A DNA stretch of 63,522 nucleotides, filler included, from Hausera hauseri (Eukaryota), in NCBI GenBank assembly GCA_046269625.1. It is 11 parts of 11 records of this genome, joined end to end, with 100 filler letters (N's around TTAATTAATTAA, not from the genome) between each part and the next. Parts side by side here need not be neighbours in the genome. Positions count along the whole stretch, not along the records: positions 31,522 to 36,781 come from JBJURY010296279.1; 10 more parts are not named here. The stretch is one strand, 5' to 3'. Positions 6,909-52,505 of the stretch are shown one piece after another. The notes under the pieces were generated by a model, which saw only the letters and a list, made by a program, of their open reading frames with translations, was not told the DNA's origin and did no database searches. Position 1 is the stretch's first letter, and the number at the start of each line of letters is the position of its first letter. Both the position numbers and the translations under genes were made by a program.

Positions 6909-6914
6909 CAGCGA

Positions 6915-11196: not shown

Positions 11197-11251
11197 ATTT
11201 ACCTTTATATTTTCAATACATTTTTGCATCTCCAAGCACTATTAATTGCTG

Positions 11252-16350: not shown

Positions 16351-17783
16351 TCGTTGAAGTGATTTTGGAAATAATATATCAATATTACCATGTACTGCCC
16401 GCTTAACGATGGGTTTTAATGCACCAATTAAATGCAAGTGGGCGCCAAATTCCATTAGGAATTCATAAATGGGGAAACCAATGGCGCCATTAGATTCTTC
16501 GAATGATGTGTGCTTGATCGAATATTCGAGTTCGAATAGCTAAATATTCGACTTGAAAGCTCGAATTCAAATATCTAACATCATATTCCGATTGCCATAT
16601 ATGATTTCCTATTCAGCCCCGCTATTAGCCCCGCTTCACTGAGCTGTAAATGCACATTTTGCTTAATTCGAAATAATGATTTTATATCTATATAGTTCAT
16701 TTTCATGGAATAATTTTTATTCATCAGGTTTTCATATATGAGGAATCGATTGCCGTTGTTAAATTTTTCGAATAGTTCGAAATTCGATATTCAAGCTCGA
16801 TAACATTCGAATTTCGAATATCTGAATTAAGATTCGAGATCACCATACTCGATTTCCTATCTGTCCCCGCTAAATGTTGTATCGAATTTTGACTCCCGGG
16901 GAGTCTGCACCAGTTGCAGTTTGGATCGATATTATTCGAAAACTAATTGATAAATTTAAATTCTAACTGCACATTCATATACTGTACCACGTTTGTGTTC
17001 CAATGCATCCGGTCACATGTCATAATCATCAATACTGGAATTATGGGAAATCCAATATTATTGATTTTAGCACACTTGCACATGTGCTGTGCACCTGCAC
17101 AGTGCATGTCAACATGCATCTCAATGTGCTAAATCTAATTCCACTTAACCCAAATGGATTCCATCAATCCTACGCTGCAGTGACAAATATGTGAACTGAA
17201 AAGTGCCTTATCAACCGCATCCAACAGGACACTTGATTCGAGTATTTTACTGAACGATAGTACATCAAGTACTCTACCCGCCAGTATATGTGCCATATTG
17301 ATATTATTGATTTTCATTTTATAGCTGAAAGGCCTATGTGAAGTCTGTCCCAGTTGTCAATTATTCGAAAACCAATCAATATTTTTAAATTCTAACTGCA
17401 CATTCTCATAGTGCATCATATGTGCTTTTGATTTCACCGGGTGCGGGTGCTAATTATCAATATTGGAATTATCGGAAATCCGATATTATTGATTTTTGCA
17501 CACTTTTACATGAGCTGCACACTTGACTGTGCACCAAACGATGTGCACTAATGTGCACTATCTATTAGCACTTTGTACCAATCGATTCGATCAATTGTTT
17601 TAATGTGCAGCGATCGATTTTTTAAATGTTCAAAAATGTGCTAGCAACGGAGCCTAGCGGTACCGTTGCCTAGCACAGTACCGATCGATATTACAGTGTG
17701 CACTATCGATTGGCACATGTGCCAAATTAATTAATCGATTAACCCCTCCGGGGGTCGGACAGAATTTCCATTTTTCCCCTACT
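16350..17783 (-). mobile_element. Polinton family A terminal (TIR) region; terminus 5'-AGTAGGGGAAAAATG at 17783
   Basis: Homologous to 49700-51167 and 57020-57269; homology ends sharply at ...CTACT; internal ~430-bp tandem duplication. Confidence 0.85.
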
Positions 17784-19222
17784 AACAAATAATCCTTTCT
17801 AGATATATTTTCTCCATTGGTTCCTTTATACAATATACACAAATTGATCCTAGCAAAATCTAGGATATTATAAAAGACTTGCAGAGTCCGTTTTTGAAAT
17901 GACAATTTTACAGTACATTTTCGAAGCATTTGGTCGGTCATGTCAATACCGTACTTGGTGTTATTAATATATTCTATTGATTCGGGTAATTTTTTGTTAT
18001 TTTTTCAATATTGATGGAATTATGCTTGGAACTAAGAACTTTTAGTTGCTTTGTTTTTTGTATATTGTAATTGTACAATTACTTGATTTATACAACAGAC
18101 TTGAAAAACGAGGCAAATTATCTTTTCTTTGTTTTGAAATTTTCGGCAGTTCTTTTTTATTTCTCAAATATTTCCCACCAAAGTCGTTTTCTTCTCAAAT
18201 ATCTTTGGTGCCAAAAATTTACTGGTAAAAAATTGTCGGCGGCAAGATTTGTACTAAGACCAGTAAGTGGGTCAGTCAATTTCATTCCAACAAAATCAAC
18301 AAGAGGTATCAATGATAGCATTACTTTATCCTTGACTAAATAAGGGAATCCGTTTATGACATATTTTGTAGCTACATCCGATTTCAACCAAAATCTTATC
18401 CCAAATTTGTTTGGTTTATTGGGCATGTATTGCGTAAATCTGCATATAGTCTTTTTCGGAAATAATTTTTCATCGATGGCAATATCTTTTCCTCTATGAA
18501 ACAATTTTGGCTGTTTTCAATAAAATCGTCCCAAACTTTTGATATTAGAGCAAATTTATCATTTTGAAGTCGTTGACTCCGTTCAGTTCTTTTATCAAAA
18601 TGGATGAACCGTAAAATATTCGTAAAGTTGTTTCTACTCATGGTTTCTCTACAAAGGATATCTCCATTTTTAGACCATAGATATGACATCTTCAAATTCT
18701 TGGCTTCGTAGACACAAGTGCATATAGAATTGCTAAGAATGCGCAAAAGTCTTCTTTCGTGAATTTCCAATCTGTTCGCAAAACTCGCGAAGCCTCTAGT
18801 TCTGTACATAATCTGATATGCTCAATAATGTGATTATTGATTGATTAGCAAGAAAAAGGAGCTACTTTCTTTACCTTTCATTAATTATTTCTTTGCGTAG
18901 CCTGTGGGACCATTATTTTCGTTGAAAGTAAAAATATAATTTGGTCTTCCGGAATTCATTTTTCATTTATTTTTTTCCATACAGATCGATCAACACTGAC
19001 TTCATTTTGGTCGCCAATATTATAGGAATACGAAGGCAACCCTCTTATTCTTTTTCGTGAAGGCAAATTGAAAATATTTTCGTTTTCACTATCACTGCTT
19101 ATTAAGCTTTTGAACTCGACTAAATCAATATCTAAATCACTTTCTTTATCTACTTCTGAGCAATCCTCTCTTATATCATTTACAATTTTCAATAGTCTAC
19201 GTTTTTTTGAATGCCCTGCCAT
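17784..19222 (-). pseudogene. piggyBac (PGBD-type) transposase, decayed and interrupted by the Polinton end
   Basis: TMSRNNF..ILRFIHFD, IAIDE, QYMPNKPNKFGI, AADNF, GIDMTDQM (DDD triad). Confidence 0.92.
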
Positions 19223-19794
19223 TAATTCTTCAATATTTTATAACTATAAAAACACCAAAGTCACTTTGATATTTTCAACTTATTCAATAAAATGTACTAA
19301 CCGTCCAAGAGGTCACTTTGAATGAAAATAGGAAAATATATGTGTAGGATAATATAGATCTCGTTTATCCATTCAAATATTTCAGTCAGAGTGAGAGAAT
19401 GTTACCAGTTATATGTATAAATGTTATGCATCGCGTGAGGTGGAAATGATTTCTGCGCAGAATTTTACGGCAGTAAATCACTCTTCCTCGCTACCCTCTC
19501 GTCCAAAATCCGGTTTTGCACCACAATATCCATATAAGAAGTGGAAAAAACAAAAAGCGTGTTGCTAAATGCAATAAAATTATGGAATAAAAGAAAGTAA
19601 GCGAATATATGAAAATGTGCAGGAAGATAAGTAGTAGGAAGTGAGCGCATGAGATCAAGACCCCCGGATGGAAGAGAAATTGATGTTGTTCGCGGATGAA
19701 TTATGTGTGAGTAAAACTGAATCACACTATGCACGATTAATAGAGCGGAGATAGGAGACATACAGTTATGAAAGTGATACACACAAGCAGGCGT

Positions 19795-19820
19795 ACTGTA
19801 CGGATTCGGAAGGGTTTTAA
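19795..19820 (-). repeat. Possible piggyBac left end
   Basis: Minus strand TTAA(AA)CCCTTCCG, close to the TTAA-CCCT consensus but with 2 extra bases. Confidence 0.4.
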
Positions 19821-20542
19821 GAATTTAAATTTCGCACCAAAATTTTTTTTAAATTTTGATTTATTGCCCCCTATATTTTTTGCCTTAATATTGGTGTAAA
19901 AATATAAATACGATGCGAAAATGTCATTTATTAAAATATCATTTACGAAAAGATCACTTATGAAAATGTCTCACACAACTATTTCACAAAGCTTGGCTAA
20001 TTCCAAATTGCGAATGACGGCTTTTTCTGCGGTGATTACCTGAAACATGAAGAAATTCATCTATGATTGAATGAAGTGCGAACTTGTTTTCAACAAAGGA
20101 TGATATTGCATATGTCGCACCAGATATGCTGTTGGAGGTTATACGAAATAGACTGATTAATATTACTCATATGATAGATAAAATAATCAAAATGGTAGAA
20201 GAATTGGACAACAGTCAAAAGAAACTAAGCAATTTAATTAATGACTTTATTAAATATGGACATTGATTTACTTATTTTGTACAACTGTAATAAATTTTGG
20301 TATTCTTGTTGTTTTTGTTTCTATAATGTGATAAAAATTATCAAAGTATCTAAGTAGAAAATTATAAAGGTTAGAACACGTTACTAAATTAATGTTACTT
20401 AGTATTAACTCTACTGAAATTAAACGCATTTATTGTAACTAAATACCTAACTAACAAAACAAATAAGACAGATTAGAAAAACTTTTATTAATGTAAAAAA
20501 ATTAATCAAAACAAATGTACAACAAAATCGAACAATCAAAAA

Positions 20543-21699
20543 TCAAAGAAAATACTGTCCAAATGCGACACTTTTATTTTTCTGTATCCAGGGTCTTTTG
20601 TCATCAAGTGAGTTCAACGTCTTCTTTTTCGTGCTGATTGTCATTAACTGGTGATATTTTGTCCCAATTCTCTCCTGGTCAACTATTGTTCCACATGCAT
20701 TTTGATACGTCTGTAGATAGTTGCTGAAGGGTAAATCTATCTTTTTGAGGTTGATGCCCTTACATTTCATGACTGGTTTATTTGAGTTTTCAGTGCATAA
20801 GATTTTGGTCGCAAGAAAACGTCTTCTTGATACTCGACACAGCCCTTACTTTCATCCTTAAATTTGCCCATTACCGATGAAAAACGAGTGGAGTAAAGAG
20901 GTCAGTAGTATAGTAATTAGACGCATCAAACTCTTCATTGTCTATCATTGCTGGTAAAAGTTGTGATCTTAGATCAACTCCACGACACGCAAGGGAAAAG
21001 CTGTTCATATCACCAGCAATAATATTTAGCTCACAATTAAACTGGTGCCTATACGTCTCCAATTCGACATTATTTAACTCCGACATTTGCAACTTAGAAA
21101 GATCAAGTACGGCCTGACCGATGTATAAGGGTATATCTAAAGTAACCATGACTATATTGAGGAGAACAGCAAACCGATCATCAGCTATAATAATACCTTC
21201 TTTAAACTGTGCTTTGCTGGCATATGTAATAAGCTTTTTGCATTATTACACGGTCTTAAGTTGGACCTTTTCAGCAGATTTTTAACAGTTTTTCCATACA
21301 ATCTGTTATTTTTCAGCTTAAAGAAGTCTTTTTCAAAAGGATTTTTTTCTGCAGCCCTTTTAGAAGTATTTAAATCAATATAATCCTTAAGGATATATCC
21401 TTGATCAAACTCACCAACCTGATGAACCTTTTCAATTACATCACCTAACTTGATATAAAACTGTAAAAACCGATAGTAAATAACGTAGTTGGACTTACGC
21501 TCATGTGTCAGCAACAATTTCTTAACTCTCGATCCAGAAGTACATTAATTGATTGGAGCTAAAGGCAGTTGATCCAACTTATCATGTTTGTCAGATGGAA
21601 TGTTTAAATCACCTACAAAGACTAAACCTCGTTTTTCCCTAACAGTGCCAATATGAGACAATTGTTCAATCAGACCAATTAATTTATCCTTATCATAAA
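20543..21699 (-). pseudogene. Polinton pPolB C-terminal polymerase domain (second family)
   Basis: YIDLNTSKRA..FEKDFFKLKNN.LYGKT..N, PLYIGQAVLDLSK, KCKGI, LNSLDDKR. Confidence 0.9.
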
Positions 21700-21973
21700 T
21701 GTGGTGCCCACATGGTTTGTCCCCTTGCCGGACGAGATCGAGGGTTTGTTGTTCCCTGGGCGACGCGCAAGTCCGGGACCGAATGCCTGCCTCTTTCCCG
21801 GGTTATGTTTGGCGATTGTGGGTGGTGAAAAGTGCTATATGAAGAACAAGTAGGATCTCATACTTCTGAACAGCAGTGGTTCCTCTGGCAGAACTCGTTC
21901 TAATCACGCATAAAACCGACACTATTCATGTCTATTCTTTTGCGTTTTGGACAAGAAAGTCGCAGGCAACACA
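21700..21973 (+). mobile_element. 5' LTR of an LTR retrotransposon inserted into pPolB, followed by PBS
   Basis: Starts TGTGGTGCC, ends GGCAACACA (8/9 inverted match); TGGCAGTCGGTG at 21976 after a 2-nt spacer; start resembles the LTR at 53471. Confidence 0.7.
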
Positions 21974-22203
21974 CGTGGCAGTCGGTGTGCATGCATCTTG
22001 GGCGTTTGTTGTATATGTGCATACATACATGTACTATACTTTTTTGTTGTTCGTTTTTTTTATTGGAACTAATTTTGTTTTACTGTGCGAAGAGTTTTGA
22101 AATTTTGTTGGACGAAAATAAATCTTTTAGTGCCGCAATTCAAACTGGAGTTTTCTTTTTGTGAAACTGCAAATTCTTTTTATCTAGCATTGAGACAATT
22201 AAT

Positions 22204-22548
22204 ATGTCATCAAACGCAGAACTGCTTGATCCGAAGAGCTTATTTGATGGGAATAATTTTTCTGAATGGGCAAAGCAATCTTTTGCTAATTCCGATTTTT
22301 CAAGTAATTTGGATAAATTTATTTCTACCAACTATGGAGATAGTTTGAACGGAATCCACGACGAGGATTTTGAAAGAAAACTAAATAAGATATGCGATGA
22401 AATTATTCAAAAGTATGATATTGATAATAGTGGTTTCTATCAATTCCATATTGAGTTAAATGCTTTGGACATGAATATTAAAAAGTTACATTCCCTTGAA
22501 GAATCTTCGAATAAAACAAGTAATTTGGCTCAGTACTTGGTGTACTAG
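22204..22548 (+). CDS. Hypothetical first ORF (gag-position) of the LTR element starting at 21700
   Basis: First substantial ORF after LTR and PBS; no motif recognised. Confidence 0.35.
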   Translation: MSSNAELLDPKSLFDGNNFSEWAKQSFANSDFSSNLDKFISTNYGDSLNGIHDEDFERKLNKICDEIIQKYDIDNSGFYQFHIELNALDMNIKKLHSLEESSNKTSNLAQYLVY

Positions 22549-22900
22549 ATGGTAAAGGTGTTAGAGCAAATGAAGAAATTTCAGAAGAAATAGTAATTTC
22601 TACAGAAGACGATTATGTGCAAATTGTATCGTTGACATCAAAATTACTAAAGCAAGATCCNNNNNNNNNNNNNNNNNNNNNNNNNNNNNNNNNNNNNNNN
22701 NNNNTTAATTAATTAANNNNNNNNNNNNNNNNNNNNNNNNNNNNNNNNNNNNNNNNNNNNTATTACTGTTCTTGGTATTATTTTACCTCCATTTATACTG
22801 GTTATCAATGCCTCTTTTGGAGCGGATGGATAAAACATCAGCTTCATATGTTTTGGGTCATAATTGTCTGTCACTTGAACAATGTATATCTATATATTCA

Positions 22901-25565
22901 TTAGGAGACAAAGTGTTGTTCCAATAGGTACTCATTCCATCTTCTCATTTGAGAAATATATGATAGTAAAGTCCGTCGTTTCTTACTTCTGGCAGTGATT
23001 AAAGTCCATGTTCTTCTAGTGTTTTCGATGGGTTTAGATCTTTTCTCCTTTATCTTCTTTGGTGAGAGGTTATTTTCATCATTATTATTATCATCGTCAT
23101 CATTCTTGTTTTTGTTTTTCTGTTCCCATTCAGCATCCTTTTTTATCAGGAAACAGCTGGCTATGAATGGAATTAATGCATAAATAGTTTTCCATGCACA
23201 TCCGGCAGCTTGTTTAATGCCGTATCCTTTAGTTATCATGGTCAATATCGCTTTTATAAAGGCAAAGATATAATAAAATCCTATCCATCCAGAATTAAAT
23301 TGACCAAAAGACATATACCATCCCCATGCGGTCGCAAATATATCTTTAGCTATTTTCTTGGCATATTCTGGTCCCATCAAATTTTCCCAGTTAGCTTTCC
23401 CGGTGTGATCAACTAACACTCTCATTGCCATCTTTGTTAAAATTTTCTGTCTCTTTTGGGGGAACATCATCATTCTTCTATGATTTTCCATATCTTGTTC
23501 GCAAGACACACCCATCTTTACCAAATCTGTCAATGGCTTGTATGTTTGTTCGGTCTTCAAATTGATTAAACTAATCCCTCGAGGTAGAGTAATCTGCTCC
23601 TTTTTCGGCATTCTTATCCATAAATTGTCGCTTAATCAAAATGCTGGCGACATAATATATGTACAATTTTCATGTACATATGGTTTCTCCATAGGATCTA
23701 ATAATATACGAGTAATTGGTTGCAAGAAACGTGGCTTTTCCTTGTACCAAACAAGTAACTCCATGGTACAGTCTGTTGTTGGTCTCAGTTTGACAGCTAC
23801 TTTTGTACATTCAAAAGTTACAAGTGTCTCACCCATTGTTCGAGAGAACTTTCCTTCTGCATCGGGAGATTCAGCTGGATCTTTTATTATTCCGTCCGTT
23901 ATCGCTAATAGATATATTCGGTTTCTAATTATCTCTCTGTTGATTATCTGTTGATTATATCTCTGTTGACATAATTGATACCAGTTTGCTTTTCCAGTGT
24001 GATCAGCTAACACTCTCATAGCCATCTATGTTAAAACTTTCTGTCTCTGTTGATGGAACATCATCATCCTTCTATCTTTTTCCATATCTTGCTCAGCGTA
24101 CACACCCATCTTTACTAAGTCTGTTAATGGCTTATATGTTTGTTCAGTTTTCAAATTAATTAAACTAATCCTCCGAGGTGGAGTGATCTGCTCCTTCTTC
24201 GGCATCCTTATCCATAAGTTATCGCTTAGTCGGTATGCTGGCGACATAGTGTATGTACAATTTTGGTGTACATATGGTTTTTCTGCCGGATCCAATAATA
24301 TCCGGGTAATTGGTTGCAAGAAACGTGGCTTTTTTTTATACCAAACAGGTAACTCCATGGTACAATCAGTTGTCGGCCTTAATTTGACAGCTACTTTTAT
24401 ACACTCGAGAGTTACGAGTGTTTCGCCCATTGTTTGAGCAAATTTACCTTCTGCATCGGGAGACTCAGCGGGATCTTTTATTATTCCGTCCGTTATCGCT
24501 GACAGATATATCCGATTTCTAATTATCTCTCTATTCAGCTTACAATCATTTAATATTATCTCTCGATACATAGCATAAATATTTTCTTGTTGGAAGTGAT
24601 AAATAAAATCGATCTTATTATCGAAGTAAAGATGAGGCTTTACTTCTGATTTATCAATCTTCCTCTTAGCTTTTGTTATTTCTGTTGTGGATAAAAATAT
24701 CCCTTTATAATTTGTTCAAAATATCGTGTAATCACATCTGGTATCACTTTCTAGTTTAAATCTCATTCAATCTTGAGGATTTACTGAATATACTATGGTA
24801 GGAGTCTCAATCATATCCGATATTCGATCTAGTCTACTCTAAGATATTTCTTCTTTATACATTCGGCCTTTTGTTTTGTTAAATTTTCCTAGCTTTAAAA
24901 GAGCTAACTGAAATTAATCTCTCAACTTCATATGACATAATTGATTCACCAGTGTCGCATTATTTATTATAGTAATCACATTCAGGGAATGTCGTCATCG
25001 TCTCTGAGTATAGTTCGAAGAGGGCATCGTATTCCCTCAATTCAACTTGATAATCTTCTATGGCCACTATATTGTCTAAAATTTCACCACTGATATTGTT
25101 GGACTCACCCTTAAAATATCCTGTATTATCAATTGTCCCGGCAACAAAAATTCTTTTATTAATGATTTTTCCTTTCTGATCCTTCAAACGAATATTTCCT
25201 ATATTGATCTGTTTTGTTACAAAAGCCTCTATACACATTTGTTTACATACAGGAAGTGGCTGGAACGGAGTGGTTGGTACAACTATTGCTGAGTTTTGAT
25301 ACCAATATTCACAAATAAAGTGAAAATGATTTTGTCGATCAAAACATTCTTTCACCTTAGTTTTCACAAATTCCGACTCTTAATAAACGTAGTATTCTTT
25401 TCCGATATTGTAGTTAATGACTCCGGATTGGCCAATTGACATTTTTCTAAGTTTAGTAAGGAATGTATAGGACCTTCCTTAACTTGACTAAAATCATAAG
25501 CAATGATTGAAAGTGCTTTGGGCATCAGGCTAAACAGAAGGAGTATAGGTGTAATTTTTGTTAGC
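22901..25565 (-). pseudogene. Chuvirus-type (class III fusion-like) envelope glycoprotein, disrupted, with internal 594-bp duplication
   Basis: Signal-like ILLLFSLMPKALS then IIAYD..SLL.LEKC; MYREIILNDCKL; GETLVTLEC.KV.VK.R..DCTMELPVWY..FLQPITRIL; C-terminal hydrophobic segments. Confidence 0.85.
23387..24534 (-). repeat. In-frame tandem duplication (period 594 nt) inside the glycoprotein
   Basis: GGATCTAATAATA at 23694 vs GGATCCAATAATA at 24288; near-identical peptides in ORFs 24026-24571 and 23636-24025/22901-23611. Confidence 0.95.
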
Positions 25566-27073
25566 CATGATAAATCGAAATCTGTTTGTAGATTTCGTTG
25601 GCTCACCGATTGTTGTTGTGGACGATATTCTGTTCGTTGTTGTGTAATTGGAGCCGATTCATGTATTACTGTATGAACCAAACTGGTAACCCATCCACCT
25701 CTACATTCTACACATCCTTCAACATTGGCCTTTAAAGCACTTGTAGCAATTTCTATATTTCTCCCTATCTTTGTCCCGTTCGGATTTACTCCATTCATCA
25801 CCAATACCTTACACAAGAGATAAGATATGGCTGTTACGATTTTATTTCCAGATATGCCGGTGCCCATCATTCTAGATATTATATCTCTTTTCTAGATTTC
25901 ATTTATCCTCTGATTTTTTGGGATATCTGCAAATTGTTCACTAATCTTTGCGACCTCATTCTTTATAACATGCATTAGTGAATCCGGTATTTACAGATTA
26001 GTATTGAACTCAACGAATGCATTGTGCATTCTTCCTAACAAGGTATGTAGTAATGTTGTCAGTAATACATTATCTACGTCATATTCATCTTCTGTTGTTA
26101 GCAATCTTCGAACGACTTCGTCATCTCTGGCTTTCCTACCTTTCAACTGATAAAGTTTCGTCGTTCCTTTTGATCTGCAACGGTTTCTTTTATCTGTTAG
26201 CATTTGTTCTGATATAGACATATTCAATCCCGTTTCTATTTGTTGAACCTCATGCTGATGTTCGATTTTCCGTTTTTCTTTTCGCCTAAAATCGGTGATA
26301 ATATCGTCAATTATTTCTTGTTCTGACTGTTTATAAGTAATACACACAGGATTGTATCGGTTTTTCCAAATACCTACTTCATACAAAGTTTCATGATTCA
26401 ACAGAGTGCGTCCATAGAAACGTAACTCTATTTCTCCTCGAGGCTGAATAATCCCATTGATATTATTTTTCAATGTCATTATTGTATCCAATGACTTCAT
26501 TCTTAAAACATGAAAATCTTGGTTATACTGTTGTAGTGTAACCATTACTTCGGGGTTTTCTCGGACTGTCCTCACTCTATCTGCATATCGATAAATTATG
26601 TATCGTACGATATTCTGATATTGGCATGTACCCGCCGCATACATTAACAGCAAATCCAGTAAATTAGCAAATTGTTGATGGCTAATTGTTGGCGATAGTA
26701 GCATAGACAGATCTTGCCTAAACCGAGTACTATTTATTATTTCTTGGTTGGCATAGCTGGATATTTTTCGAACTATTTCTACGCCATCCTGATCTATTTC
26801 CACAGATAATAACTCATAACTTGTGGATTTTTCCTTTATTTTCTATTTCGTTATTCCTTTTATCTTCTCCTTGAGTGCACTTTCTTCACTGGTCTTACTT
26901 TTTTCACTTTTACTTCCCAAAGGCGGATTGAGTTCCGGAATCTTCAATTCTTCTCCTTGTATTAAAAGTTTATCCTTTTTCTTGACCCTTTTCTTTTCAA
27001 TATCCGATTTTTATGTGGGAGTCTTTTTGGGCCTACCAATAAGAACAATGACTGAGCTTTCGGCGTTCATTGT
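25566..27073 (-). pseudogene. Polyprotein segment upstream of and in frame with the glycoprotein; contains a ubiquitin-like domain (about 26333-26548)
   Basis: ORFs 25991-26803 and 25364-25870 are in the same frame (120-nt gap with stops); DTIMTLKNNI..P..IELRFYGRTLLNHETLYEVGI matches the ubiquitin pattern. Confidence 0.7.
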
Positions 27074-29139: not shown

Positions 29140-31421
29140 TTAATCATCAAGATCCACGTTTTCATAGTCGATGCGCGATTCGATAAAATCTTCTTTTTCG
29201 GGTTTTGAACCTTGTCTGGGCCGTTCTATTGGGATCAATATGGGTTGCTTCTGTTTCATTAAGAGCAGGTATTTGATGTGACCGTTAAAAAATGTCTCCG
29301 TAATAGCATCAGAAGTTAGTGTAGTATCCAGTCGTATCCGTAGCTTCGTGTTTAGTGAGATTCCATAATTTATGGGTAAATTTAACACTGCTACTGGACT
29401 CCGATAGGGAATAATGAAATAATGATTATTGGGCCTCTGATATATCATGCCAATAAGAAGGTTGTTCTCTGTACTCCATTTGTATAATTTTCTTGAGGAG
29501 ATGGTATCCTTTAAAAAATATGGTCGATCGATTCTGTGAATTGGTACCGGTAGATTCAGGAAATTCTTTTTTATTATTATTCCGAAGTTAAACTTTAATT
29601 CTTCCTTATTAATCAACGTATGTTCAATTTGCAGGGCCAATGTTTCGGTAGGGGACGGTTGAGTTTGACTTGCCATGCTAATCGTTTTTACTGGGTAACG
29701 CCAACGTCCAAGTTCACTTTCTTCGTCATCTTCTATGTTCTGGGGGGCCAGTATCTGCTGGATATCCATATTATCAATTATATCCTCTTCATTATCGCTT
29801 TCGGCGTCTTGTATTTCCACATTTTCTGGTGTAGCCAATTCTAAGTCTTCTTCTATGAAATCTTCCTTGCTATCGATCAATTTTTGGCTATTTGTATTAA
29901 CTACCTCTACTTCAATTTTGTGGACCCATGCAAATTCTTGTAGATACTTCTCTCTGCAGTAAAACAATTCTCCAACGTCTACTATGTTTTCATTTATCTT
30001 GTCAGGTGTCCAATTAGGTTCGCGTTTGATATCTGAAATCTTCTGAAGGATATCTAAAGCCAATTCCAGTTTCCCGTTGGTATTTTGTTCGTACATTTGC
30101 CCGTTCCTATGTTTTGGTAATCTTAGCTCCCTGGCTACATTCGTTATGTCTATTGTATTGAACGATACTCCGGTGACATCCGGGTGTTTCAATAGGTCAA
30201 TTGCACCAGCCAAATAATTTGATGGCACCTCGAACATTTGTAATGCTCGGTGTATGTCCAGTCCGATGACAATTGTTCCGAAAAGCCATTGAATGACTTC
30301 TTTTGAGACTTCGAAGATATCAAAACCATGGGCTTGTAAGGATTGAAAATCAATACCGTGCCTACCGGTATTGCAATTATGCACTCTAACTCTGTTCACA
30401 ACCAGGGAATGGTACAATATTTTACCCTTGATGTTTGTTATGGTCACTTCTAAGGGCAGTGAAGTATTATCCGGTGAAAATCCAAAGGATACCGTTAGGA
30501 TTCTAATTGTAGCTGACTGGCTTGTTTGCAGGTAATTTAATCGTGCATTTGCAATGTATTCAGGCGGAGTTTGAACTAGGACCATAGGCCTAGGTAAGGA
30601 TAAATGTTTTTCTGGCAAAAGCCATTCCAACATGATTACTAGAGGGATCCGATTCGGCCGGATTTGAATTAAATCTACACTCATGGGTGTATTTATAGCC
30701 AGTGATTCTTCCTCGAAGATGGTGGAGATATTGGATAGCGTGTATTGCGAGTTCTTTTTAGTTTTTAGAACGGCGGTTCCACGTGCCATATGTAGAATCA
30801 AACCATCTATTGATGGACATTCTGTGATAAATTCGTCCATATTTCTTTGCTTGGGTTCTGTTACAGTGATTATTTTTGCATGTCTATTGACAGTGGGACC
30901 ATACTTCAAATGATTCGGTATTTTAGATATTTGCGGGAACAACAATTCTGGATAGATTGACGCCTCACGTCTTATATGATTGTAGAAGGATCTCGCCATG
31001 GTTTTGGTAAAGGATGAATTTTTGGCTCCGTACTGTGCCAATAACTGATCGATGGGCAATATATCTGCATGGAAGAGAGGAAAATTTGTGGATGAGATAG
31101 TTTTATGGTGAATAGTATTTTCTGCTCTCATTTCAATCATGTTTGGTTTGTACTGATCTTGAAAGTTTTGTTTTTGGACTGAGTGTCGTTTTGAAATCTG
31201 TATTGAATTGAACTGACGTTTGAGTTTGTTTTGGTTTGAAAAAGGGACTGAATAGAAAAATTTGTCAAATTTATACTTACTTTTTGGTGTCGTTGTGCTG
31301 TCTGGTAACCAGACCAATAATAAAGCTGTAAAAATGGGACCTATTGTGCGTGGCGCATATGTGTGCATGCTAACTTGCGATGACATCAGCTGTGGCTGGT
31401 CACGCGATTTTAGCGGGCAGT
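29140..31421 (-). CDS. Large accessory protein (>748 aa, 5' open) with a degenerate DEDDh/REX4-like domain, acidic linker and conserved C-terminal domain
   Basis: Uninterrupted ORF; EVTITNIKGKILYHSLV..NTGRHGI..EVSKEV..GTIVIG resembles the REX4/ISG20 core; C-terminus homologous to 45880-46278. Confidence 0.8.
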
Positions 31422-31521: not shown

Positions 31522-34500
31522 TCTTTATTATTACCTATCCTTTGTCTGCAAGTGTTTATTATTCTTTTTCTTTCTTCTTTAAATGGTCTAGCTATTTCAT
31601 CATCATCTGGTAATTCACAAAATATTATATGATACCGTATTGCATTCAATTTACCCGAAAATCCACTTGCGTTTACTGTATCAAATTTATCTATATCCAT
31701 ATAATCCTCCGGGGTTAATATGGTGTTCACATCTCGTTCTAAGTAATCGTTCCATACTATCCGTGCTTCGTCTTCCTCAAAAAGTTTTATATCTTCTCGA
31801 ATAAGATCATCCTTTATAGCCATAAGTGCGTAAGTCATCCAACAATTAATCGCATAAGTTTCAGACTGAGAATTAGTATGTAACTCCTCACTATAATATC
31901 TAAACAGGTCCAAGCATCGATTAGCTCTCTTTGTTATTCATTTCGGAGTTCTACTTGCTAGTAATTTCGGAGAGAGTCCTCGAAGATAGTTAGTTATACT
32001 AGTTATAGGGAATGATTTAGTTATACCAGTTATAGTAAATTACGGTGGTCTTTTTTGCAAAAATGAGTAATTAACATTCGTTCTCTTCGACTTCCAATAA
32101 ATAGGGGTAGATATTTGTTTCTATCTCCGTATACTATACTTTCTTCATATGTTAGATCATTTTTTCTATTAGAAAATCAAATGATCGAAGGAAACAAATT
32201 ATCTGTGGTGTAGAATGACTTTTTAATCGAGCCTTTATTAACGACTCATGTTTTGGACACATAGGTTCATTACCTAATATTCCAATCATTTCGTTCCATG
32301 TTCCTATCACGATTTTAGTTGGTTGTAACCATATGGGTTGTAATTATATTTCCATTATAACTCGTTGTAGTAGACAAAATCCTTGATAGTATACCCTAGT
32401 TTGAAAATCAACCCATGGGCTGAATTTTACATCATCTATCGGAATCTTGTATGAGACGTATAAAAGACTGGATATTAAAAGTAGTTAATAATCATAGGTT
32501 GATTTCTTAAAATCTATTCCTGTTTCTTGTCTTAGTCGATTAAAATATGATTCATATAGAATCATATACAGTTTCATGAAGTTTTCTGTAACCTCATGTG
32601 GTAGTTGATCTATACTACCTTGCAGTAGTAGACAGTTAACAATATGTCTACGTCGTTCTCTAGGTGTTTCCCCGTATATAAGAAGTTTTGTATCAGGATA
32701 ATCGGGATAAAGTAGAGTGGCATAGTCGGTTTTTGGTTCAATATCGTCTAACGACTGTTCGTTTCTGTTGGCGATAATGCGCAAATTCGTTATTGTGTTT
32801 GGGATATCTTCCTCTTCTGGGCATATTCTTGTTGAATTTATCGGAAAGTGTGGTGGTTTATATACCAGTCTATACAACTCTTGGTCCATTTCTTCCCTTA
32901 ATGATGGAAGATTTACTGGGTTTATTCTTAAGGTATTTACTAATCTAAAATAGGGAATTACTTGATTAGCCATTGTATAATTATGTATTCCTTCATTATG
33001 GTAGCCAAAATCGTCTTTGTCTCATGTGTCGTTACTTTTGGTATCAGATTAATAGCCTCTCGTATTGCCTCTATTAGCTCTGGTGCTACATACTTTTTAA
33101 TTTTATATGGTTCCGTTCACTTCCATTTTTATTTAATTCTTCCATAGCCTCCTGTAGTGGTTTAGGTAGCTTCCTCCATTCTTCGTTATTAGCGTAATTT
33201 TTCCTCCCTTTCTTCAAAGGAAGTTTATATGTAGAGTTAATAATCTTCCAGCTTACTCTTTGATTTGGAAATGGCAATCTTTTCCCTAAGTGGAAAGAGC
33301 ATTCATGGATTATATTCTTCTTCCTATAGTCTGTCATTATTTATGTTAGATTGGAATAATCATCTTCAAATTGTGTTTGTTTTTGATGTTGTTTTTCAAG
33401 TAATCGTTGATTTGATGAAGGATCCAGGTGCATCTCCTCCAGTGGAAAACTTGAAGGTACTTCTTGGACATGATCTACTTTATTCTTACTGACTTCGTTG
33501 TTTGTTTCTTTATTTCTCCCCAAGAATTTATCATTCTTGTTATTATGCGGAAAATTCCTGCGACGACTCATCTTCCTATACTTTTTGGTTACAAATGTAT
33601 TCTTCACGCTGCCTTTTGAAAGGGTCAGCTAACACTTGATAATTGTTCAACATGCAGAACAACATTCTATATCGTAAAGCATTTAAATTGCCTGTTAGTT
33701 CCTTTTCATTTACTTGTTCCAGCCGATTAATTTCGATACTATCTTCCTCTGTTAACGGCGTATCCTCATTCCATTTCTTCTATTTTTTCTTTCCTTAATT
33801 CGTCTTTTATTGTCATTAATATATAAGTCAACCAACAATTAACCATAAACATATCGGATGTTGTCCTATTTATCAATTCTCTTCCGAATTTCCTATATAA
33901 GCCAATACATCTCTTTCCTATTTCTCTACCTTTCCTTTGAGTTACAAATTTTTCGCATAATGGAGACGTTTGCCGTAATAACATAAACATATCTATATTG
34001 GGTAGTTGCATTTTCTTCTCGCTTGCAGTGTTAATAAAAAGAATTCTTTCTTGCGCGCTACCAATAAACAGAGGTTTGTATCTTCTTATGTCCCTGTAAT
34101 CGGAATAAGCTGATATAAGTGAGGTTTTCTTGTTAGGTGTTAATTTATGGCTATGATTTCATGATTTTTATTGTAGATGTAATGTGTCGGCTCCATATTG
34201 GAATAAATTCGATTTGCTTGTGCTTCACTATTCATCCTTAACGTTCTCACTAATTTGTCATAATTCAGACATTCTCTGAACGTTTGATAACCATAAGGAA
34301 ATCGGAAAGAGGATTCCATTGCACTTACTTTGGGTTCATCAATTATGAGAATTGTATTATCCATATTTCCAGTCATTTCAAATTCTTGTTTACCATGACG
34401 TCTATTTCGATTGAAGTTTGGGGCGCACACAATTCTTCATTCACCAAAACATTTATCCCAATTGAAGTTTGGGACGCTTACGATCCTTAAAAATTCCATA

Positions 34501-36781
34501 CTGGTTAAAATACATAAAACTTTACTTGGTGGTAGTCCAGTGTTTAAGGGTTTTTTAGGCTCCCCTTCTTCGGGTATCTTTACAAAATTATCCATCTAGA
34601 TATTATTGTTAGGTTCTGTTAAATCGTCATTCCGTTCAGCTTTGCCACTGCCGCACAACGAGTCCCCGTTTTCTTCCATTTTCGAAGATTCTTCGCTGAG
34701 GTAAATACAGGTGTTTTGCTTCTCGAAAGTGTTTAATTGTTGCATCTCTTCCGTTGTATGAATCAATTCCTCCTTTTTCTTACTTAATCGTAATTGACAA
34801 TTACTTATTACGTCCTCTCGTTCCTTTTTGTACATTGCAGCCTTCTGCTGATTATCGTTTAGCAAGCAGAACAATAATCGATAACGTAAGGCATTTATTC
34901 TGCCCGACATTCCCATAACATTTACTTGTTCTAGTTGATAGATTTCTTCCCTGCCTTCCCTGGTTAATAATGTATATATATATCTGTATAGAGAGAGATA
35001 TTCCACAGTATTCGAATTTCTTCTTCTTCTATTTCCTCCATTTCTTGCCTTTTCAATTCATCCTTTATTGCCATCAGTGTATAAGTCAACCAACAGTTGA
35101 CTATAAACGCATTAGACGTTCTTTTATTCACCAGTTCTCCTCCAAAATTTTGGAATAATCCGATACATTTTTCTCCTATTTCTTTGGCTTTTTCGTGAGT
35201 TACATACTTACCACATAATGGAGTCGTTTGTCGTAATAAAGCAAATGTATTGATAGTAGAAATTTGTGGTATTTCTTTTCTAAAATAATGAATAAGAAAA
35301 TTTCGTTCTTGCATACCACCAATAAACAGAGGTTCGTACTTTAGCAGATGGCTTGAACAATTCGATATCGTCCACTGTTCTTCATTATCATTCTCATCGT
35401 AATCAACTGATTTAGATTTACTTAATCTCCAATTAACAGTATGGGCATAACGGATTAGTTCTATCGGAGTAAATATTTGATTAGATAACCATATTAGCTC
35501 ACATATTTCTCTCAAATCTTTTACTAATTTATCGTATTCTATGCAATTGCGTATTGACTGATATTCATAAAGGAACTCCAAGGGTGATTTTTTCAAATAT
35601 TCCGCTCGTTTTTGTGTCGATGTATTAGTGAAGGTGTAATCAGATCCCATTTTATATCATCCGCAGAAACTTGATTTGACATATTGTCCATTCCTTCACC
35701 AACAGTATATGTTCCATTTTCTTTCTCATTATCGGGTGTGTCCTTTAAAGGATTTGAGACTTTTATTACTTTCTCTCGTTTGGAAAAACATTCATCAGAT
35801 TTGTCGTCGTCATTACTAAAGAATTTGCCCATCATCAACAATGAAAGTATCCACAATAATATGGAGGTCCATGAAAAATTAGGGCGATGAGATGTAGCCT
35901 CAACTGCCTCTTCTGTACTAATCGTAGAAAGCAAGCATATTCCCATAAGGAACAACGTTCCCAATGAAAATGTAAAGTAACCTTTGATACCTAATGATTC
36001 GCGCTTTTTATCCTTTTCTTGAAGGTCTTGGATATGCATTGATCTTGTTTCGTTAGCCATTTTGTCCATATATTTAATGCTATTTCCTGCAAATTGTAAT
36101 CGATCTATCTTCATCCATTGTTCAGGAGGAAGATTACTATCTAATGGCTGTCCCATTCTTCTGTTCCAAACTCGTTTAACTTCCTCTACCCCGTTATTGA
36201 GTTTTCTACCTCCTATATTTATATTGTGATGTTTAAAAATTTTTATTGCTCGAGTAGTTGCTACATAATCATGATGTTGCGATCTTCCTTGACTAGCTAA
36301 ATCAGGAATCGTATAATATACTTCTTCACAACTTATCTTTAAGAAAAATTTGTCCAGAGCGGTTAATGCATTAGAATCCAATTTTAGGTCTTCGCAAAAT
36401 AATTTTATTATGGGCTTATATTGTTCATCTGTTATTCCGCACTTTTCGTGGTATTTACTAAGGAAATTTCTTAATTCCGTTACACTATTTATAGGTCCTT
36501 TGAGTAATTGTTGTGCGTGATTTATGCGTTCTGGAGTAGCTAACAGGAAATTCTCCAGCCTGTGTCGATTAGCTGCCTCTCTGGTCAATGGGAGTGGTGG
36601 CAAGTTCCCCCCTTTCTGTTGAGGTAATTCGAAGTAATTCTGTTCAGTTGGTTTGACTTCTTTGCGTTGTATCTGTTTAGTAGGGTCTATTTTCCTTAGC
36701 TTAGTATCGTTATACTCAGGGAATTTTGGACTTTCTTCTGATTGATGTTTTTCAATTTCCTCTCTTAGTCGTTTAATATTT
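31522..36781 (-). pseudogene. Decayed large polyprotein: two hydrophobic helices followed by 3-4 copies of an unrecognised domain
   Basis: Repeated PLFIG..ER, LLRQT.P, CIGL, NCW(L/M)TY.LM.IKD(E/D)L, G.SG..NA.RY..FC motifs; two TM-like stretches in ORF 35593-36603. Confidence 0.75.
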
Positions 36782-45879: not shown

Positions 45880-46278
45880 TCATCCATCGAGATCCACACT
45901 CTCTTGATTGATTCTGGTATTAATTACATCGTTTTCATCTGGTTTGTATCCTGCTCGAATACGTTCAATTGGTATTAAAGTAGGTTGTGATTGTTTTATC
46001 AGCAGAAGGTATTTCAAATGTCCGTTATAGAAAGTTTCAGTTACTGCATGAATACTATTTGGCGTAACAGGTTTAACTTTTAGTTTTGTACTAAACTGTA
46101 CTCCGTACTTTACGGGTAGTTTTAGTACAACGGTCGGACTTTGATAAGGTACCAAAAAATATTGATTATCAGGTCTCTGATATATTCCTCCAATTAATAT
46201 ATTCCTAATCGAATTCCATTTTGATAACTTTCTGCAGGAAATAGTTTTGCTCAAATAATATGGTCTTTCTATTTGGTG
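45880..46278 (-). CDS. C-terminal domain homologous to the end of the 29140-31421 protein (partial)
   Basis: LIG.IYQRP.N.YF..PY.SP..VL.LP..YG...TKL...TETF.NGH.KYLLL.KQ.QP.LIPIER...VDLD shared by both. Confidence 0.9.
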   Translation of the reverse strand, partial: HQIERPYYLSKTISCRKLSKWNSIRNILIGGIYQRPDNQYFLVPYQSPTVVLKLPVKYGVQFSTKLKVKPVTPNSIHAVTETFYNGHLKYLLLIKQSQPTLIPIERIRAGYKPDENDVINTRINQESVDLDG

Positions 46279-46378: not shown

Positions 46379-49300
46379 GCATATGGATGCTCACCAGGTT
46401 CTCCGTGTAGATTGTGCTGCTGTGGAAGTTGGGCTTAGCGATGAGTTTCTTTGCCATCTTCCAGTCACATACCAGCTCGATGTTTATCCGGTTCCGGATA
46501 TTCTCCATAGTTTTGCCAAAGACCGAGTGGTAATACAGCTTGAATTTGTCCTTTTCAAACTCGTTCTTGGCATTGGCCCTCAACTGAGTATTGAGGTTTA
46601 TGTATGGATTCAGCCATTTGGACTGGCTGAAATGCAGGGCCCAATAAATCCTGATTACTCGGAGTCCATTTTTGATGGGCTGTTGGAAATTTATGTAGTG
46701 GGCTATATACCTCTCCATGTTTTCCAGATGGCAGAGCAGTTTCTTGTTCTTGTCATTCGGCGGCCTCTTGCTCTCCGGCAGGAAAGGCAGCTGCTCATAC
46801 CTTGTGTGGATGCTATGTGGGTATTCCACATCCACCTCCAGTATGTAGCCCGGGTCTCCATTGGGATCCATACCCTCAATATCCAATACTTGCGGCTGCT
46901 CCACACATTAAAAGTTATCATAGGGCAATGGGTTGCTCATTGCCCATCCATATAGGTTGTTGGCATCCAGGTATGTTATATAGCTGGATTCGTTGGATGG
47001 GTCATAATCTGCCATGTATTTGTTGTTGGCCTCACTGTACATGTGAATGACCTGGCAGATTCCGCCCATAATGCCTCTCTCAACCATGAGGACCATATTG
47101 TAATCCTTCGAGGTCCGCAGCCTTATGTCGGTATAGCGCAGCATCGCCGCCTAGCTCATTCCTGGAGCTGTAAAGAAATTGGCTGGACATAACTTGTGGC
47201 TCTTAAGTGTCACATTCCGAAAGCTTTCGAAGACATTTGTAAGAAACAGCACATCTGTGAGGAGATAGATAACAGTGTATTCCCTTATTATCCTGCACTA
47301 GAAGGTCTGCCATACCCTTTGGGCGCGCCCATAGTCAGCATCGCTAATATCACTGTATGGCAACTGACTATAGAAGTCCTCCTTGGCCGGTACTACTTCT
47401 TCATCCAGTGCTTTCCATGCCGTTATATAGTCATAGGGGAACACTCCTTTCCGCTTCACGAGGTCAAATGTATCCGTGAAGAACCTCTTCGTCTCCTTGA
47501 GCTCATCAACTGGAAGGTTCTTCACAGGACTGTCCAGTGACGAGCTCATGAAGCGGAAGCTACCGATGAAACGAAGTTTGATGTGGCCCACATGCTCCGT
47601 GAAGGTGATGTACTTTTCCTCACTATTTGGAATCATATCAATGTTCCCCTCAATATTATCCAATTTTCGAGCAATGAAGTGGGAATCGTATCCACTAAGA
47701 TTGTGGAATACCACGGGAACATATGTACATGTCTCGCAGCGTAAGTTGCAATTATTGCACGTTGCGCCTCGGTATATGCCTGTAAAATGGCATTGATCCC
47801 TGACTTTGTGATTGTCCCATGTGAATGGCTTTCTGCATAAGTAGCATTTTGATGCTTTGCACCATTCACATTTTTCTTGCTGCGACATCACCATGTAGTC
47901 CTTATGTTGCAGCTACATGTCTACAAGTTTATGGGCATACTGTTCCAGACGCTGCGTAAAATGTGCTGCTGCATTTACACCTCTGTATAGGTAGGGTTCT
48001 TTGCCCAGTCCTTTGGCATACATGCAGTATGATGATAACTCATGGTACTGATATGCTGTAGTACTGCTTTGCTGTGGATTGGGGCTGCAGCTGTGAACTG
48101 GACTGAGAATGGACTCAAAGTCACAATGTATGACAATAGGCACCTTCCGTATCTTTGCATACTCCTTGAATTCCAGGTAATCCTCCTTGAGAATTCTGCT
48201 CGGATGCAATAGTTTGTATTGCAGTAGGTCTTGTGCTCCACCAGCTTTTCTACGGCCGTGTCTCCATTAAAATGGGTAAAGCATCTCTAGCATATTTCCA
48301 GCCTTGATTTATGCTTGGATATTTAGGATCCTACGAGGCGCTCAAAATTCTTGATCCAGATGAAATGCCTCTTTTCTTCATCATCTAGCAGGAGCAGATC
48401 TCTATGGTCCTCCAATTTTTCCAATCCGAAGATGTTGATAAAAATGTTGTTCACGCTTTCAAATTTCACGACTTCATCTAGGCTCGGCGGGAATGAAATA
48501 CAGCTGAAGTTGTATGTGTGCTGCATTTTGTCATATATCCAAACTCGGGAAGCATTATGTTGATCCTGGACTAGTTTTGACAAAATAGAATATATCAAGC
48601 ATATGCTGTCCTCATTATCGACATGGATGCATGCCTTTTTCTTACCTATAGATTCAGGAAGCGGTATGTAGGAGCTGCCTCCCATGGGAGAATACTTGTG
48701 TACATGCACAAGTAACCCTTTTATTGTTGCTAAAGTCCAACCGCTCTTCTTGTCCTGGCTTTCTTCCGCTTCGCGGATGAGCTTGCATAGTCCTCTGTAA
48801 TGAAATCCTAAATGTTAGAGGATTTCAATAGTAGCCTGTTCTGTCTTGAAGGCTCTACTAGGCAGCTCTTCTTTGACATTGGTGAAGGTGGCTTCCAATT
48901 TGAAGTTCACCTTAAGGGCCTTCAGCTCCAACAAGTTGTCCTGGAGAATTTCTGCTGCCTCCTGCTTTGAATATTCCAGGAATTCATTGATTGATGTCTG
49001 CCCCACTGCTGCTATGAAGTATCGCCGCACTTTGCTCTTTAGTGCAGCTACATCAACTGGCCGCTGTCTTTGGCTTTTTGATGGAGCATATGCTGCTACG
49101 TCTGATATGCGTTTTAGTCCTGCATCGGGCCTTGCTGCTAAAGCAGACTGTACAACAGGCTGTGCTGCCAAAGCAGGATGCTGCTCATTAAATATGACCT
49201 TCTTTGACTTTGATGTGAAGTCAGTTAAATGATGTTTGTGGTCTTCATAAAACTGTATGTATTCTCCATCACATACAGCCTCACATCCTGGTAAGATATA

Positions 49301-49702
49301 ATAGATGTTCCTATTGAATTTGTATCCATAATAGCTCCTCATAGTATTGACAGTTCTGAGGGTTGTATATTGCACATGTGCAATACACGTATGAACAGCA
49401 TCTTTGATTATCCTTTAAAGTCGTTATTGGCATATTTGCACTGAATATTTGTTTTTCGATTTGGTGAAGGTAATCAAGTGCTGTTTATGGACATTGCAAA
49501 AGTCTTTATAATTGGATTGGCACACTACCTCACATGTAGGGCATATATAATACTGAACCCTGTTTTATAGATGGCCAAAGTACTTCTTCATAATACTGTG
49601 GCAATTTTCAGGCTCGTGGATTTAAGCTAAACATTTGCTGTAAAGTTTGCATATCTATAAATCAACCAATTTTTTTAGGAGCACAATTAAAAAATTCACC
49701 AT
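46379..49702 (-). pseudogene. Polinton pPolB (family A, copy 2), decayed
   Basis: GSSYIPLP, PIVIHCDFES, VRDQCHFTG.YRGA.CN.CN, VFHNLSGYDSH, RKGVFPYDY, YLDANNLYGWAM, FEKDKFKL..SVFGKTMEN. Confidence 0.95.
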
Positions 49703-51167
49703 TCGTTGAAGTGATTTTGGAAATAATGAAATATATTGCCATATCAATATGCACTGCCCCGCTTATTGATCGGTTTTAATGCACTTTTGTTTTAATGCAT
49801 CAATTAAATTAAATAGAAGGCGGCACCAAATTTAAGGTTTCCGACCATGGGGAATCGAATGGCGCCATTAGGTTTTTCGAATAATTCATGCTTGACCGAG
49901 TTTTCGAGTTCGAATAGCTAAGTATTCGACTTGTAAGCTCGAATTCGAATATCTGATGCCATATTCCAGTTCACCATACATGACTTCCTATCCCGCCCCG
50001 CTTACAGATTTATTGATTTCCGACTCACTGGGCTTTAAATGCAGATTTTCCTTAATTCAAAACATTGATTTTGTATCTATATAGTACACTGTCATGGAAT
50101 AATTTTTATGCATAAGGGGGTTTCCATGTATTGGGAATCGATTGCCTCTGTTAGATTTTTCGAATAGTTCGATATTCGATATTCGAGCCAAAAAAATTTC
50201 GAATTTCGAATATCTGACTTGAGATTCGAGATCGCCATAATCGATTTCCTATCTGTCCCCGCAAATTATAATATCAAATTTTGCACCTTTACGGCCTAAA
50301 AAACCCATGCGGGTTCTGCCGAAGTGGCACTTTGGATCGATATTATTCGAAAACTAATCCATAAATTTAAATTATAACTGCACATTCATATAGTGCACCG
50401 CAATCCCAATCGATTGCACCCAGTCACATGTCCTCAATATTGGAAATATCGGAAATCCGATATTATTGATTTTTTCACACTTGCACATGTGCTACGCACC
50501 CGCACAGTATATATCAAGGTACATATCGATGTGCTCTATCTAACTGCACTTGACCCCAATCGATTCCATCAATCCTGCGCTGCACAGTAACAAATGTGAA
50601 AAGCGAAAAAGTGCCTTGGCAACCTTGAGCATTTCCATAACTGTAGTGCACCGCTTGTACTACCAACCAGTACTTGCCCCGGATCGATATTATCGATTTT
50701 TATTTTATAGCGGAAAGGCCTATGCGGGTTGTCTCTCAGTTTGGAATTAATCGAATCCATTCAATATATTTGGGTTCTAACTACATTGGCCCAGTCCATC
50801 ATGTGTGCTACAGATTGCACCCGGTGCCGTGCCATAATCATCAATATTGGGATTACCGGAAATCCGATATTATTCATTTTGTACACTTGCTCATGTGCTG
50901 CACACCTGCACTGTGCACTAATAGATGTGCACTGATGTGCACTATCGATTACCACTTTGTCCCGATCGATTCGATCAATACTGCACTGTGTAGCCATCGA
51001 TTAATTTAATGTGCAAAATGTGTATAGCAACGGTGCCTAGCGGCACCCTAGCCTAGCACACTACCAATCGATGGCGTTCCGCGTGCACTATCGATTGGCA
51101 CGTGCAAATTGATTAATCGATTACCCCCCCCCCTCGGGTGAGGGGAATCCCGCATTTTCCACCTACT
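49703..51167 (-). mobile_element. Polinton family A terminal (TIR) region, copy 2; terminus AGTAGGTGGAAAATG at 51167
   Basis: Homologous to 16350-17783 with the same terminus and internal duplication. Confidence 0.85.
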
Positions 51168-51345
51168 ATTGTCATTGGTGAAAATGTAAATGTCAATTCC
51201 GTCAAAGGCACTTCCCAGGCTCCCTGGCGTAAATAGAATGCTTGGTCCAAGTGCAAGGTAAACTGTTTAGCGGTATTGTCATTGTCGTCAATTTGTGATA
51301 ATGATCTGTTACTATTAAGTACCAAGGAAATGCTGCTCATTGAAT
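51168..51345 (-). pseudogene. Polinton minor capsid/penton (PX) N-terminus, interrupted by family A insertion
   Basis: ISLVLNSN..NTAKQFTLHLDQAFYLRQGAWEVPLTEL matches the PX N-terminal pattern. Confidence 0.7.
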
Positions 51346-51399
51346 CTGTGATGCAAAAATCCAACTCAGTGCAGTGTATCCGTGACACTTGACGAGATA

Positions 51400-52400
51400 T
51401 TGTTTATTCGAACCTTTGTCACGTAAAAATAGAATTTTTTGAATACGATATACATCGTGTTTTTCGAGTACTACTTGCAGTTCTTGTTCGTAGAATTTAC
51501 CGCGTTTTCCGCGCCGTTTTCATCCTCTGAAACATACATGACAGGTGTTTGTTTTGTGTAGATTGCCGAAATGCGGAAAACCTCATCGCTCCAGTTCTGA
51601 TTGAAATTCTTAATGAATGGCGTTGTACTTCTTGCCAAAATACGTACGTAATCACCGATTTTATATTTTGGGCGTTTAATTGACTGTCGTTGTGTTCGGT
51701 TTTCATAAAGCCACATGTCCAAATCATCGATTACGTCAACCGGGCGCATTTCGTTGATTCCACGATGTGTCGAATGATTGTATGCATGAATAATATCCGG
51801 CAGTACATCTACCCAGCATTTATTGCCCTGCTTCGTAAAGAATTTGTTTAGGCCACTGCGCAATGTTCGATTAAATCGTTCAACGAGTGCAGCCTTGTAT
51901 TGGGAAAACATCGAGTAGTGGTTTACGCCGAACCATTTCAAGACCGCTAAAACATGGGCGTTGTAGAATTCCTTACCCAAATCTATTTATAAATGTTTCG
52001 GTTGTTGTTGTTGCATCAGTATCTGGACAGCGTCGGCAATCTCTTCACAGGATTTAGATTTCACAGCAATTGCACGTTAAAAACGACTAAACACATCAAC
52101 ACATGTCAGCACGTACTATACTCATCGTTGATACTGGTATACGGAATCATTTCCATCAAATCCATTTGCCATACATTATGTACACCGGCAGCATGGTATG
52201 CATAAGTTGAAAACCGCTTTCTTATCGGTTTGTTTAGTCTGTATGCTAACTGTTTCCCTAGCCAACGTTGTGTCTGTTGCCGAGTCTGTTTGACAGTCTT
52301 TGCCACTTTATCGACTCCAGTATATCCGAGGGATGACGCGGATTGAACCACACGTCGCCAATTGTTGCCGTCGATGGTGCTGGTTTTGATTCCATTACAA
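51400..52400 (-). pseudogene. Polinton retroviral-like integrase
   Basis: WQMDLMEM, GKEFYN, KAALVERFNRTLR, YNHSTHRGI..P.DV, KYKIGDYVRI, QNWSDEVFRI. Confidence 0.92.
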
Positions 52401-52505
52401 CAATTTGAACGAAACGTAAATGAAAGTTTCGGTAAACTGAAACAGAAAGATGAAAACTATGCACCCATATCGCAAATCACCATATACTTACCCTCATTGT
52501 TTATA

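Follow-up and report, generated by a model that had tools for sequence, protein, structure and literature searches.

A triplicated, unassigned protein domain in a dead piece of a repetitive element

Introduction

Only a few animals are known to have giant retroelements that carry host-modulating cargo, and a large share of what these elements encode is still unassigned. It is well established that large retroelements can have extra domains of no assigned family. In walleye epsilonretroviruses, orf b arose from a duplication of orf a.

As the passages on Burro in PMC6431247 describe them, the Burro (GYPSM1) elements of planarians are giant Gypsy-like LTR retrotransposons with copy numbers in the thousands. 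Their polyprotein of 4,873 aa has many extra domains, about half of them unassigned at first, and carries ubiquitin/SUMO-like, BCL2 and env domains in that order. Burro is mentioned once in the excerpts of PMC11410931, and the excerpts of PMC13524379 hold nothing on repeats like those reported here. Parts of PMC5408684 and PMC6431247 describe the accessory ORF3s of bdelloid LTR retrotransposons, and Terminons, as having ORFs with coiled coils and TM helices. The retroviral rv-cyclin is portrayed in parts of PMC3185748 as a helical protein, remote from host proteins, that acts by binding host proteins.

Here we follow up an earlier note, made from sequence alone, on a repeated domain. The domain is real and belongs to no family that we could assign; it occurs three times in a fragment of a repetitive element that is now dead.

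Results

The window and its contigs

The window, the whole stretch of DNA that was analysed, is 63,522 nucleotides long. It is made of 11 unrelated contigs of 4.0-8.3 kb each, with the linker N/TTAATTAATTAA/N between them, and the repeat takes up most of contig 6, on the minus strand. Every recognisable neighbour within the window is a mobile element. On other contigs, Pfam matches mark a Helitron Rep/helicase, a reverse transcriptase and a fusion glycoprotein of Monjiviricetes type, and further contigs were judged by eye to be Gypsy pol, L1-like and Maverick/adintovirus-like. The set looks like the mobile elements of an animal or animals. GC ranges from 0.32 to 0.45 among the contigs, in which fish-like and flatworm-like elements seem by eye to be mixed; more than one element or more than one organism may be represented.

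Several neighbours have features of their own. The contig at 1-6808 (plus) is a non-LTR element (RT, Pfam E 2e-21) whose upstream pieces resemble by eye an Ulp1-type protease region, and which we take to be NeSL/Utopia-like. At 6909-14214, a 1,068-aa open Helitron Rep/PIF1 frame lies tail to tail with a Gypsy-like pol fragment on the opposite strand. The contigs at 14315-22660 and 46379-52824 (minus) are related, 72-87% alike in longer blocks, and by eye hold Maverick/adintovirus-like polymerase and integrase pieces and internal repeated non-coding blocks. A 759-aa open frame at 29143-31419 (minus) has a middle that looks by eye like a degenerate DEDD-type exonuclease, with no match in Pfam, PHROGs or PDB, and its C-terminal part resembles by eye the start (45883-46278, minus) of the contig at 42244-46278.

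The features of contig 6, in positions along the window, are:

31522..36781, minus: whole contig 6, a decayed continuous coding stretch of ~1,750 codons from a many-copy repeat family; linker-bounded, both ends open
35596..36780, minus: region U, a 395-aa open frame with a charged N-terminus, a non-repeat domain, two hydrophobic stretches and a linker
35920..35976, minus: hydrophobic stretch 1, TM- or signal-like (Kyte-Doolittle 1.91 over 19 aa)
~35815..35877, minus: hydrophobic stretch 2, weaker, TM- or signal-like (Kyte-Doolittle 1.48 over 19 aa, 2.09 over 15 aa)
34764..35650, minus: repeat unit 1; head motif 35536, core from 35341, NA.RY...FC at 34895-34866; one frame change near 34990
34377..34763, minus: linker 1, charged, largely open in the frame that it shares with the end of unit 1 and the beginning of unit 2
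33582..34376, minus: repeat unit 2; head motif 34262, core from 34083, NA.RY...FC at 33683-33654; frame changes near 34150 and 33775
32974..33581, minus: linker 2, coding-like, with a few breaks and no homology to the repeat
32203..32973, minus: N-terminal extension of unit 3; head motif 32952, then ~250 codons unrelated to the repeat core
31522..32176, minus: core of repeat unit 3, from 32116; NA.RY...FC at 31646-31617; breaks near 32160, 32060 and 31940; cut short by the end of the contig

Three copies of one domain

All-against-all blastp of 120 stop-free pieces of the contig gave three homologous units on the minus strand, with pairwise identities of 37-54%. Copies 1 and 2 match at 54% over 105 aa (E 1e-40) and 52% over 58 aa (E 2e-16); copies 1 and 3 at 44% over 64 aa (E 2e-17), 38% over 73 aa (E 4e-16) and 48% over 23 aa (E 2e-4); copies 2 and 3 at 44% over 48 aa and 37% over 73 aa. 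The earlier note had proposed a domain of ~250 aa repeated 3-4 times. The repeat is real and the count is three, not four, and the domain is better described as a conserved core of ~160-190 aa within units that, head motif included, span ~265-295 codons (units 1 and 2) and ~480 codons (unit 3). The core starts are spaced 1,258 nt (units 1-2) and 1,967 nt (units 2-3) apart.

The copies had also been called divergent in DNA and conserved in motif, which they are: the longest DNA matches reach 64% over 526 nt for copies 1 and 2 and 59% over 329 nt for copies 1 and 3, and the motifs PLFIG..ER, C.(G/D)L(F/Y), NCW.TY.LM.IKD.L and NA.RY...FC occur in all three. LLRQT.P, proposed earlier as shared too, is limited to copies 1 and 2, and the piece of copy 3 at that place scores at chance against both. 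The residues common to all three copies are mostly hydrophobic or structural and include four cysteines, with no recognised catalytic motif.

Across the six reading frames of the whole window, the head motif Y..LV..LR turns up at three places, one heading each unit, a count that is partly circular because the motif was defined from those same places. It precedes the cores of units 1, 2 and 3 by 65, 60 and 279 codons. The stretch at 32485-32973, previously taken for a partial copy, has no blastp match to any copy among the 120 pieces, and its head motif has a score reached by 37 of 1000 shuffles against the head of copy 2 and by 313 of 1000 against that of copy 1. Since it carries the head motif alone, found once per unit, and no core match, we take it for a head and not for a fourth copy, most plausibly the extended N-terminal part of copy 3.

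The region upstream

As the earlier note stated, the copies follow two TM-like helices, in that the two hydrophobic stretches of region U precede the repeats. Region U has no homologue in the protein, PDB-sequence or DNA collections searched. A 47-column stretch of it resembles the C-terminal half of copy 3 (blastp E 0.005; none of 2000 shuffles scored as high) and is at chance level against copies 1 and 2. The joint repeat profile gives region U 2.6 bits, which 28 of 1000 shuffles reach. It is possible, judging by these scores, that region U holds a very remote fourth relative of the repeat.

In both of the sequencing runs described below, the summed contig depth over 36098-36625, within region U, is several-fold above that over the repeats, depth here not being copy number. 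Related families may share region U and lack the repeat array.

Family and fold searches

The earlier note could not assign a family, and that still holds. Searches of Pfam, PHROGs, NCBIfam and PDB sequences gave nothing significant for the repeat or the contig, including no profile match to a known host or viral family. A set of 5.8 billion proteins held no homologue (the repeat being compared only with longer proteins), and IMG/VR, JGI, GTDB and phage DNA held no related locus. The sole match among 1.84 billion representatives was a mucin with summed SEA repeats, which was not counted as a homologue. The collections searched cover unannotated animal transposon proteins poorly, so the blank search says little for novelty. 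The domain could already have a name in the annotations of Burro ORFs given in supplements or repeat databases.

Structure prediction, suggested earlier as a check, gave two all-helical AlphaFold2 models that are unreliable (mean pLDDT 47 and 45), and four fold searches with these low-pLDDT models returned generic helical hairpins only.

Copy number, coding and decay

Two public runs contain the stretch, with shares of 0.45 and 0.15. Contigs lying on the 5.3-kb contig at 80-100% identity number 9,659 and 1,320 in the two runs. In the first (X1), 791 are at least 99% identical, 1,759 are 95-99%, 3,655 are 90-95% and 3,454 are below 90%, and the changes among family contigs are mostly transitions. 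The contig belongs to a many-copy, diverged repeat family.

The whole minus strand of the contig is poor in stop codons. Summing the fewest stops in each 100-codon bin gives 26 for the minus strand and 60 for the plus strand, against a mean of 96 (minimum 76) in 300 shuffles, and this low contig-wide sum means that the linkers are coding-like too. The contig now carries ~16 breaks by our own count, made up of stops and frame changes.

For copies 1 and 2, dN is 0.31 and dS 1.24 over 163 codons, a ratio of ~0.25; for copies 1 and 3, dN is 0.46 and dS 2.34 over 149 codons, a ratio of ~0.2; these values come from local protein alignments that favour conserved stretches, which biases the ratio downwards, and dS is near saturation. 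For copies 2 and 3, dN is 0.53 and dS is saturated. The low ratios between paralogues indicate that the domain was kept under purifying selection after two duplications.

Variants within the family tell of a later phase. Among the 40 best-supported variant rows, 36 fall on codon positions 1, 2 and 3 as 13, 12 and 11, with one row in a stop and three in a frame-ambiguous stretch omitted and 1,155 further rows outside the count. Such an even spread points to neutral decay of this contig's copy. Other copies have a substitution, a length difference or a loose end at or beside 8 of the ~16 breaks, so the breaks look private to this copy. As judged from its sequence, this is a once-constrained, now dead gene.

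Discussion

The most likely source of the contig

We read the contig as an internal piece of the long polyprotein gene of a giant retroelement that has many copies in an animal genome, the likeliest candidate being a Burro-kind LTR element of Gypsy type, and would give this reading an even chance. The contig itself has no RT, integrase, gag, protease or LTR, and its link to RT, integrase or LTRs is one that we infer. One other contig of the window bears on the reading:

22761-27073, minus: ubiquitin-like stretch, weak Bcl-2-like BH4 and BH1-BH2 pieces, hydrophobic signal-like stretch, Monjiviricetes-type fusion glycoprotein

Here Pfam gives E 0.01 for the ubiquitin-like stretch and E 6e-34 for the fusion protein. 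The BH4 and BH1-BH2 pieces match a viral Bcl-2 in the right order, at scores reached by 17 and 21 of 1000 shuffles with BLOSUM62 (10 pieces tested) and by 93 and 16 of 1000 with BLOSUM45. The env region is partly duplicated (23387-23686 and 23981-24280, 86%). This Burro-like domain order suggests giant polyprotein-coding Gypsy elements in the source. The repeat contig has no blastn or tblastx match to any of the other 10 window contigs. Its tie to the Burro-like contig is thus circumstantial, by association: the two are similar in GC (0.342 for the repeat contig, 0.353 for the Burro-like one) and share no sequence match.

Other kinds of element

Another large mobile element, such as an endogenised DNA virus, a Maverick/Polinton-like element, a Helitron or a Terminon-like Penelope, is an unlikely source. 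Such a source would agree with the lack of a retroelement core gene in the repeat contig and with the presence of Helitron and, by eye, Maverick/adintovirus-like contigs in the window, and parts of PMC6431247 and PMC5408684 report coiled-coil/TM ORFs in Terminons as well as in bdelloid LTR elements. Against it, IMG/VR contigs and predicted viral structures gave no match, both being weak tests, and gapless coding on one strand over 5.2 kb would fit a polyprotein better than arrays of short genes.

One polyprotein or several genes

The units might also belong to the same kind of element and be separate tandem accessory genes with their own starts, expressed from spliced or internal transcripts, which we consider less likely still. 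In-frame ATGs stand at 35650, 34376 and 32973. The first two are each exactly 38 codons ahead of the head motifs at 35536 and 34262, the third opens unit 3, and the ATGs at 35650 and 32973 are both flanked by A at -3 and G at +4. A further point in favour is that the best-supported variant rows list none at the frame changes near 35650 and 32990. Yet the coding-like linkers leave no spacer between units, and in linker 1 a single frame carries on from unit 1 to unit 2, interrupted by two stops in ~150 codons, where the other two frames have 10 or more. Two acceptor-like sites were found, neither of them just ahead of a candidate ATG.

Stop codons are scarce along the whole contig, which one long reading frame explains more simply. 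The earlier claim of one polyprotein would fit this contig-wide coding, tempered by the breaks and the candidate starts; the contig would hold part of one polyprotein gene of >1,700 codons, open at both contig ends.

Known helical families and host genes

An improbable reading is that the repeat belongs, after strong divergence, to a helical family already known, whether cyclin box, Bcl-2 or retrotransposon capsid, with region U a Gag-like protein. The idea grew from a likeness, seen by eye, of short repeat motifs to those of the cyclin box and Bcl-2. Against a profile of 8 natural viral cyclins, the five repeat pieces did no better than chance, 111 to 483 of 500 shuffles equalling or exceeding their scores, and the repeat has no cyclin-box match in Pfam or PDB. 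With hhalign, one helix of copy 1 fell on cyclin helix 3 at a probability of 0.04%, and comparisons with cyclin gave probabilities of <0.1% and 0.3%, at a sensitivity that is low with three copies. Retroviral cyclins are <20% identical to host cyclins, according to parts of PMC3185748, so sequence tests can miss them. In the IMG/VR giant-virus contigs L006, L017 and L019, a kinase-like region seems by eye to be fused in frame upstream of a cyclin box.

Compared with one natural viral Bcl-2, the repeat pieces likewise gave chance-level scores (z -0.4 to -1.2), and neither Pfam nor PDB yielded a Bcl-2 match. BH1 and BH2 did not align in register on the repeat; they did on the window contig 22761-27073. 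Neither region U nor the repeat has a Pfam capsid match, the PDB matches to E 10 include no capsid, and comparison with two window pieces taken by eye as gag-like gave scores reached by 57 and 650 of 1000 shuffles.

A host origin, as a multigene family or an array of pseudogenes, would accord with purifying selection after duplication and is very improbable, the stretch being readable without introns, covered by thousands of diverged contigs and matched by no annotated protein.

What the domain may do

If the contig is an internal piece of a Burro-kind polyprotein, the repeat domain would be a non-catalytic helical protein-interaction module, made within the polyprotein behind paired hydrophobic helices that would tie it to the membrane. 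It would have been duplicated twice in tandem and retained for binding host proteins to the element's benefit, in control of cell death, ubiquitin or silencing, functions that have been proposed for the cargo domains of Burro. Should the two helices form a hairpin, the repeats would lie on the same side as region U, probably the cytosol. The four cysteines common to all three copies leave open an alternative in which the repeats might be luminal and disulfide-bonded.

A more specific proposal, which we hold only tentatively, is that this domain family has not been described before and is limited to one lineage of giant retroelements that bear env, forming a membrane-tethered array of three modules (perhaps four, counting the remote relative in region U) that binds host proteins or replaces the envelope ectodomain. 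If this is true and the host is not a planarian, it would extend Burro-like proviruses beyond planarians, where they were described. A domain duplicated twice and kept under selection is a good candidate for an interface between element and host. As a dead orphan piece of a transposon, the contig is an annotation lead and not a field-changing result.

Comparison with known systems

The contig is like Burro, as depicted in parts of PMC6431247, in belonging to a family of many copies with decayed members that carry stops and frameshifts. A very long polyprotein would be a further likeness: the contig is coding-like over all 5.2 kb, with ~16 breaks and three candidate ATGs. Unlike Burro, it has no detected MATH, BIR, Bcl-2, env or PR-RT-RH-IN, and the Burro passages of PMC6431247 mention no triplicated domain of this kind, the comparison being one of description and not of sequence.

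Walleye epsilonretroviruses likewise have neighbouring accessory genes of ~300 aa, orf a and orf b, in a retroelement. The contig differs from them in having no cyclin signal, no retroviral env or pol and no clear separate genes. With the bdelloid LTR ORF3s and Terminons, as they appear in parts of PMC5408684 and PMC6431247, it shares a probable retroelement setting, two hydrophobic helices, cysteines, coiled coils and the lack of a detectable homologue. The bdelloid ORF3 in parts of PMC5408684 is a single ORF of 210-230 aa, whereas in our contig >1,300 codons, containing the domain three times, come after the two helices.
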